Below, one piece after another: positions 32,771 through 33,487 of a DNA stretch of 64,000 bases. A program made the position numbers and the translations under genes. Each line of letters begins with the position of its first letter. Within the stretch, counting starts at the first letter, position 1. The notes below the pieces were generated by a model. It saw nothing but the letters and a program-made list of their open reading frames with translations. It had not been told where the DNA came from and made no database searches. The DNA is taken from the NCBI RefSeq assembly GCF_057098645.1, contig NZ_CM169472.1; one strand, given 5' to 3'.

Positions 32771-33487
32771 TCAGTTTGCCAGCGCCGCCTTCTGCGTCGC
32801 TACAATGGATTCGATTCCCCCTCGGGCCAGCGCCAACAAGGTGAGTAACTCTTCATGGGTGAACGGCTCGCCTTCTGCCGTCCCCTGCACTTCAATGATG
32901 CGCCCGTCTTCGGTCATCACTACGTTCATGTCGGTCTCTGCGGCTGAGTCTTCAACGTATTCCAGATCGCAAACCGCTTCGCCGTTCACAATTCCGACAG
33001 AAACTGCGGCTACCATCCCTTTCATCGGGTTGGTTTTCAGCTTGCCGTTTTCCACCAGCTTCTGTAGCGCATCTGCCAGCGCCACGCAGGCACCCGTAAT
33101 CGACGCGGTACGCGTGCCACCATCAGCCTGAAGCACGTCGCAGTCCAGCGTAATGGTGAACTCACCCAGCGCTTTCAAATCTACTGCCGCGCGAAGAGCA
33201 CGGGCGATCAGACGCTGGATTTCCATTGTGCGTCCACCCTGCTTACCTTTCGCCGCTTCACGAGCGTTACGGGTGTGGGTAGAACGTGGCAGCATGCCGT
33301 ACTCTGCGGTGATCCAGCCCTGGCCCTGACCTTTCAGGAAGCGAGGCACGCCTTCTTCAATAGAGGCGGTACACAACACTTTGGTATCGCCAAATTCGAC
33401 CAGCACCGAGCCTTCTGCATGTTTTGTATAGTTACGAGTCAGGGTAACGGGACGCACCTGATTATTGCTACGGCCTGCTGGACGCAT
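32771..33487 (-). CDS. rph: Ribonuclease PH (full-length reading frame)
   Basis: ORF 32771..33511; start at [10 protein letters not shown]... (238 aa), read through to the native C-terminus. Confidence 0.9.

Follow-up and report, generated by a model that had tools for sequence, protein, structure and literature searches.

The gene at positions 32771 to 33487 of the window is, with near certainty, the ordinary wild-type rph of a non-K-12 Escherichia coli. Its product is full-length RNase PH, and both normal activity and normal control of pyrE are expected of it. The window is the whole stretch of DNA that was analyzed, 64,000 nt of contig NZ_CM169472.1 (RefSeq assembly GCF_057098645.1). The reading frame, its family, the absence of the rph-1 deletion, the position and sequence of the hairpin downstream, the frequency in the population, and the divergence from K-12 were all observed directly. 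As far as the sequence tells, nothing speaks against the wild-type reading. The features of the gene are as follows.

32771..33487, minus strand: rph coding sequence, full-length ribonuclease PH (translation; TIGR01966; PF01138 and PF03725; structure 1r6l; protein WP_001247093.1).
33496..33499, minus strand: GGAG, a Shine-Dalgarno-like motif 8 nt upstream of the rph ATG (direct reading of the sequence).
32817..32821, minus strand: G5 homopolymer run (C5 on the plus strand), the site of the rph-1 deletion, with four bases in MG1655 (alignment with NC_000913.3).
32800..32802, minus strand: TAG triplet, out of frame in the window and the premature stop of the rph-1 frame in MG1655, 34 nt upstream of the attenuator stem.

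Translation of the minus strand from 33487 to 32771 gave a frame running from ATG to TGA over 717 nt, which corresponds to 238 codons and a stop. A 238-codon rph frame at 32771-33487 had been claimed in an earlier note on this DNA; these coordinates are exact, and the strand, which that note left unstated, is minus. The RefSeq CDS on identical DNA likewise has 717 nt from the same ATG, with WP_001247093.1 as its protein. A TTG start at 33511 (246 aa), taken from the mechanical ORF list, was rejected. The ATG at 33487 was kept as the start because GGAG lies 8 nt before it, the RefSeq CDS is 717 nt long, and the match to TIGR01966 runs from residue 2. The gene is present as a single copy in 5424 of the 5426 complete E. 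coli genomes. The frame is a conserved gene and not a chance ORF.

RNase PH is a phosphorolytic 3'-5' exoribonuclease that trims the precursors of tRNA and other stable RNAs. The product of the window gene matched the NCBIfam RNasePH equivalog TIGR01966 at 380.8 bits (curated cut-off, 141.5 bits), residues 2-236 covering positions 1-235 of the 236 in the profile. Both PH-fold domains were found with Pfam, namely PF01138 (RNase_PH domain 1) at residues 10-140 with 107.1 bits and PF03725 (RNase_PH_C domain 2) at residues 157-222 with 58.3 bits. Against the Pseudomonas aeruginosa RNase PH structure 1r6l, residues 2-237 of the query were aligned with residues 3-238 of 239 (E = 3.7e-104), and the sequence was also aligned end to end with the solved RNase PH chains 1oyp, 1udn, and 3b4t. 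At the C-terminal end of the 1r6l alignment, ...QKAALA of the window stands opposite ...QRAALA, and the window product ends in ...QKAALAN*. The C-terminus, described beforehand as native-looking, is borne out as such by the coverage of TIGR01966 and the end-to-end alignment with 1r6l. From orthology and published work on K-12, we infer that the enzyme of the window is active.

The 3' end of rph was aligned with that of MG1655 (NC_000913.3). The coding strand has CCCGA GGGGG AATCG in the window and CCCGA GGGG AATCG in MG1655. With one G of the run missing, the frame of MG1655 shifts, giving a product of 228 aa that ends in ...ARGESNPL*, compared with 238 aa for the window. In this rph-1 frame, 5 out-of-frame codons and a TAG take the place of the last 15 wild-type codons, leaving a product 10 residues shorter, and the premature TAG precedes the native stop by about 30 nt. 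The MG1655 gene is annotated as "truncated RNase PH" (b3643, 687 nt). This alignment was the check proposed in the earlier note for its statement that the segment has no rph-1 ancestry, and the statement stood: the K-12 frameshift is not in the window (G5 versus G4), and the one-base deletion is absent. Exclusion of rph-1 (W1485/MG1655/W3110) ancestry is thus supported by the compared sequences. The rph-1 lesion as published (Jensen 1993, J Bacteriol 175:3401, as cited in PMC9997739 and PMC5379014) fits the MG1655 sequence. The state of rph can serve as a small marker of provenance, by which the window is not MG1655, W3110, BW25113, or a related stock.

The genes rph and pyrE are co-oriented and 65 nt apart, with rph as the first gene of the operon.

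32771..32773, minus strand: TGA, the native stop of rph, 5 nt upstream of the first base of the attenuator stem.
32736..32765, minus strand: rph-pyrE intercistronic attenuator, an intrinsic terminator (terminator scan and RNA fold).
32064..32705, minus strand: pyrE, orotate phosphoribosyltransferase, 213 aa (TIGR00336, 240.6 bits; RefSeq annotation of identical DNA).

The attenuator has a stem of 9 bp (AAGGCGACT/AGTCGCCTT; 5 G-C pairs) and a 4-nt loop (32744-32765), followed by T8 (32736-32743). The identical 9-bp hairpin was obtained in the MFE and the centroid RNA structures, in addition to the match in the terminator scan; Rfam does not include a family for the attenuator, and none was matched at the gathering score. 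The 65-nt spacer between the two genes is that of MG1655 with no differences. The distance from the rph stop to the stem is 5 nt for the native TGA versus 34 nt for the TAG of rph-1, and, judged from these positions in the sequence, stop and hairpin are placed in the window as in the wild type, where read-through into pyrE is coupled to translation.

A terminating ribosome spans the 5-nt gap to such a hairpin. The TGA is only 5 nt before the hairpin, so a ribosome following the polymerase closely would be able to occlude the 5' arm. On published K-12 work, the attenuation in the window may be pictured as follows. A ribosome ending at the native TGA, close behind RNA polymerase, would occlude the 5' arm of the hairpin, and transcription would continue into pyrE. 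Control of the operon would be UTP-sensitive, translation-coupled attenuation, as described for K-12. In rph-1 strains, with the G lost, translation ends early at a TAG that precedes the hairpin by 34 nt; coupling is lost, and pyrE is under-expressed. Read-through into pyrE has been described as requiring that the ribosome translating rph closely trail RNA polymerase to the attenuator (PMC2784333). According to the same source, which cites Jensen 1993 on this point, pyrE expression is lowered when the rph stop is shifted away from the attenuator loop and restored when it is shifted towards it. A recurrent 82-bp deletion puts the MG1655 stop codon just downstream of the attenuator loop (PMC2784333).

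An intact frame could still belong to an inactive gene or a misregulated operon, for instance through a promoter defect or a damaging substitution. A simple scan of 33488-33613 found no consensus sigma-70 promoter upstream of rph, which might be taken to point to such a defect but is uninformative. However, the protein is the WP_001247093.1 of the matching O145:H28 genomes, its score to the TIGR01966 equivalog comes with no truncation, and the spacer and attenuator are the same as in K-12, which makes a silent defect of this kind very unlikely. Wild-type rph is the preferred reading. As the window does not have the rph-1 lesion, RNase PH activity and the control of pyrE would both be expected to be normal.

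Exclusion of the rph-1 branch is a narrower result than exclusion of K-12. The earlier note took K-12 laboratory strains to carry rph-1; this is correct for W1485, MG1655, W3110, EMG2, and their derivatives and incorrect for the many K-12 strains that are rph+. The K-12 rph-pyrE sequence was rebuilt with the G restored and then searched among genome records. At least 60 records were 100% identical to it, most of them recognizable K-12 laboratory strains. Among the matches listed were the rph+ K-12 strains C600, DH5alpha/NEB5-alpha, DH1, DH10B/NEB10-beta, MC4100, and BW2952, as well as NCM3722, RR1, RV308, ER2796, AG100, and ET12567. In the literature, rph-1 is given as common to EMG2, MG1655, and W3110, with WG1 lacking it (PMC9997739). 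RR1 is reported to be without the rph mutation (PMC5379014), and Jensen, as cited in that paper, found the mutation only in W1485, MG1655, and W3110. Since rph+ K-12 strains exist, an intact frame alone cannot exclude K-12, only the W1485/MG1655/W3110 branch. The rph-1 allele marks one branch of K-12 only and is unsuitable as a test of K-12 versus non-K-12.

The segment could accordingly be proposed to come from an rph+ branch of K-12 (C600, DH5alpha, DH10B, MC4100), with the frame uninformative on K-12 ancestry, and the records identical to the G-restored sequence and the report on RR1 are in line with this. The substitutions decide the matter. Compared with MG1655, the window has 21 substitutions and an indel over about 1.6 kb, with 7 substitutions in rph (2 amino acid changes) and 14 in pyrE. 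Positions 32000-33700 of the window (1701 nt) are 100% identical to E. coli O145:H28 genomes, as are positions 33600-38600, and the first 44 kb of the window are 99.98% identical to O145 strain RM9872. K-12 as a whole is excluded by the 21 substitutions against MG1655 together with the 100% identity to O145:H28. Origin from an rph+ K-12 strain is refuted by the substitution pattern and was regarded as extremely improbable; the window gene is read as wild-type rph of a non-K-12 strain.

Intact rph was found to be the norm of the species. Of 5424 complete E. coli genomes, 5155 (about 95%) have the exact 85-nt 3' end of the window gene with its hairpin. The exact rph-1 84-mer occurs in 168 complete E. 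coli genomes, and nearly all of the 60 listed out of these 168 are laboratory strains of the MG1655, W3110, BW25113, J53, or HMS174 type. The gene in the window is thus ordinary and of a kind already known. With intact rph as the default of E. coli in about 95% of complete genomes, its presence carries almost no information.

One record outside K-12 has the same lesion. E. coli 2015C-3101 (NZ_CP027221.1), a non-K-12 clinical isolate with a genome of 5.3 Mb, shows the same one-base loss in the G5 run, and its rph is annotated as "frameshifted." The allele (1844-2559 of the extracted NZ_CP027221.1 locus) differs from MG1655 at 10 positions and is of a B1 type common to O26, O111, and O103 strains. 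The deletion was absent from the closest relatives listed, the extra base being present in all 14 of these other records. Either the run slipped independently in this strain or the record has a homopolymer sequencing error. Because the same loss stands on a non-K-12 allele in this strain, the rule that an rph-1-type deletion means K-12 is not strict. The G5 run might conceivably mutate recurrently, with natural isolates occasionally turning down pyrE and RNase PH rather than rph-1 being a one-off laboratory accident; this is a long shot, and its lead is the single record of 2015C-3101. If it were true, the window would simply be in the "on" state.

An intact frame regained by reversion, that is, by an rph-1 ancestor that recovered one G in the run, is vanishingly improbable: homopolymer runs readily gain and lose bases, and 2015C-3101 has the 1-bp loss on another allele, but the sequence flanking the G5 run in the window is not that of K-12, and with the intact 85-mer in 95% of genomes, an intact ancestor is by far the simplest reading.

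Several observations were made in the part of the window around and to the left of rph. A 10-bp GC-rich hairpin at 32033-32056 (CGCCGGATGA CTTT TCATCCGGCG) lies between the convergent genes slmA and pyrE and is likely a shared or bidirectional terminator. The gene dinD, just downstream of yicC and two genes away from rph, is broken (34697-35519, plus strand): it is split over two or more frames, among them ORFs 34652-34969 and 35286-35519, and the annotation of O145 RM9872, where the DNA is identical, calls it a frameshifted pseudogene. In O145:H28 RM13514, an integrase-led element (tyrosine recombinase, HTH and Rha regulators) lies between yicC and dinD at 6669-9701 of the extracted RM13514 locus, corresponding to about 34480-34690 of the window, and is absent from both the window and RM9872. 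A JUMPstart RNA element (RF01707, 55.2 bits) was found at 25114-25152 on the minus strand, upstream of waaQ (rfaQ) of the LPS core operon, and the waa cluster at about 15900-25100 holds genes annotated as O-antigen ligase and glycosyltransferases. Positions 1-44369 are 99.98% identical to RM9872, with 8 SNPs in 44 kb, of which 7 lie at 14947-27736, in or adjoining the waa cluster.

Further to the right, an IS3-family (IS629-like) element of 1310 bp occupies 44370-45679 and carries orfA and orfB on the minus strand. Its terminal inverted repeats are 25 nt long, the 3-bp target GTA is duplicated on either side (44367-44369 and 45680-45682), and an ALIL frameshift pseudoknot lies within the element at 45228-45344 (Rfam RF01497, 120.9 bits). 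The element interrupts a hypothetical gene between recG and gltS, and no insertion at the 44370 site was found among 5426 complete E. coli genomes. Positions 45680-64000 are 97.9% identical to RM9872, the best complete genome being at 99.1% (poultry isolates), and the IS element is exactly where the nearest relative changes. The switch marks either a boundary of recombination or a join made in the assembly through the IS. The tRNA-Sec gene selC is located at 55156-55250 on the plus strand and is followed by island DNA up to 64000. The island matches only in part the selC-linked P4-like element of RM9872, which carries an integrase, GapS4a, psu, ogr/delta, and a primase-helicase. Motifs of isrK and C4-target RNA were found at 63819-63909.

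Among known systems, the rph-1 allele of MG1655 is the same gene at the same locus, with about 98.7% identity to the window over about 1.6 kb. Within rph, it differs from the window by the one-G deletion and 7 substitutions, with A138V and T216I in the protein (A138 and T216 in the window). The rph+ K-12 strains (C600, DH5alpha, DH10B, and others) share the intact 238-codon frame with its G5 run but carry the K-12 haplotype, whereas the window carries the O145:H28 haplotype, 21 substitutions away in about 1.6 kb. The RNase PH of P. aeruginosa (PDB 1r6l/1r6m) is an orthologue from another genus, and its C-terminal helix region is aligned with the window protein. The O145:H28 strains RM13514 and RM9872 are identical to the window over the 1701 nt that cover the end of slmA, pyrE, rph, and the start of yicC, with the same CDS coordinates, the same protein (WP_001247093.1), and the same gene order. 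Outside rph, the window differs from RM9872 in having the IS insertion and another haplotype to the right of 44370.
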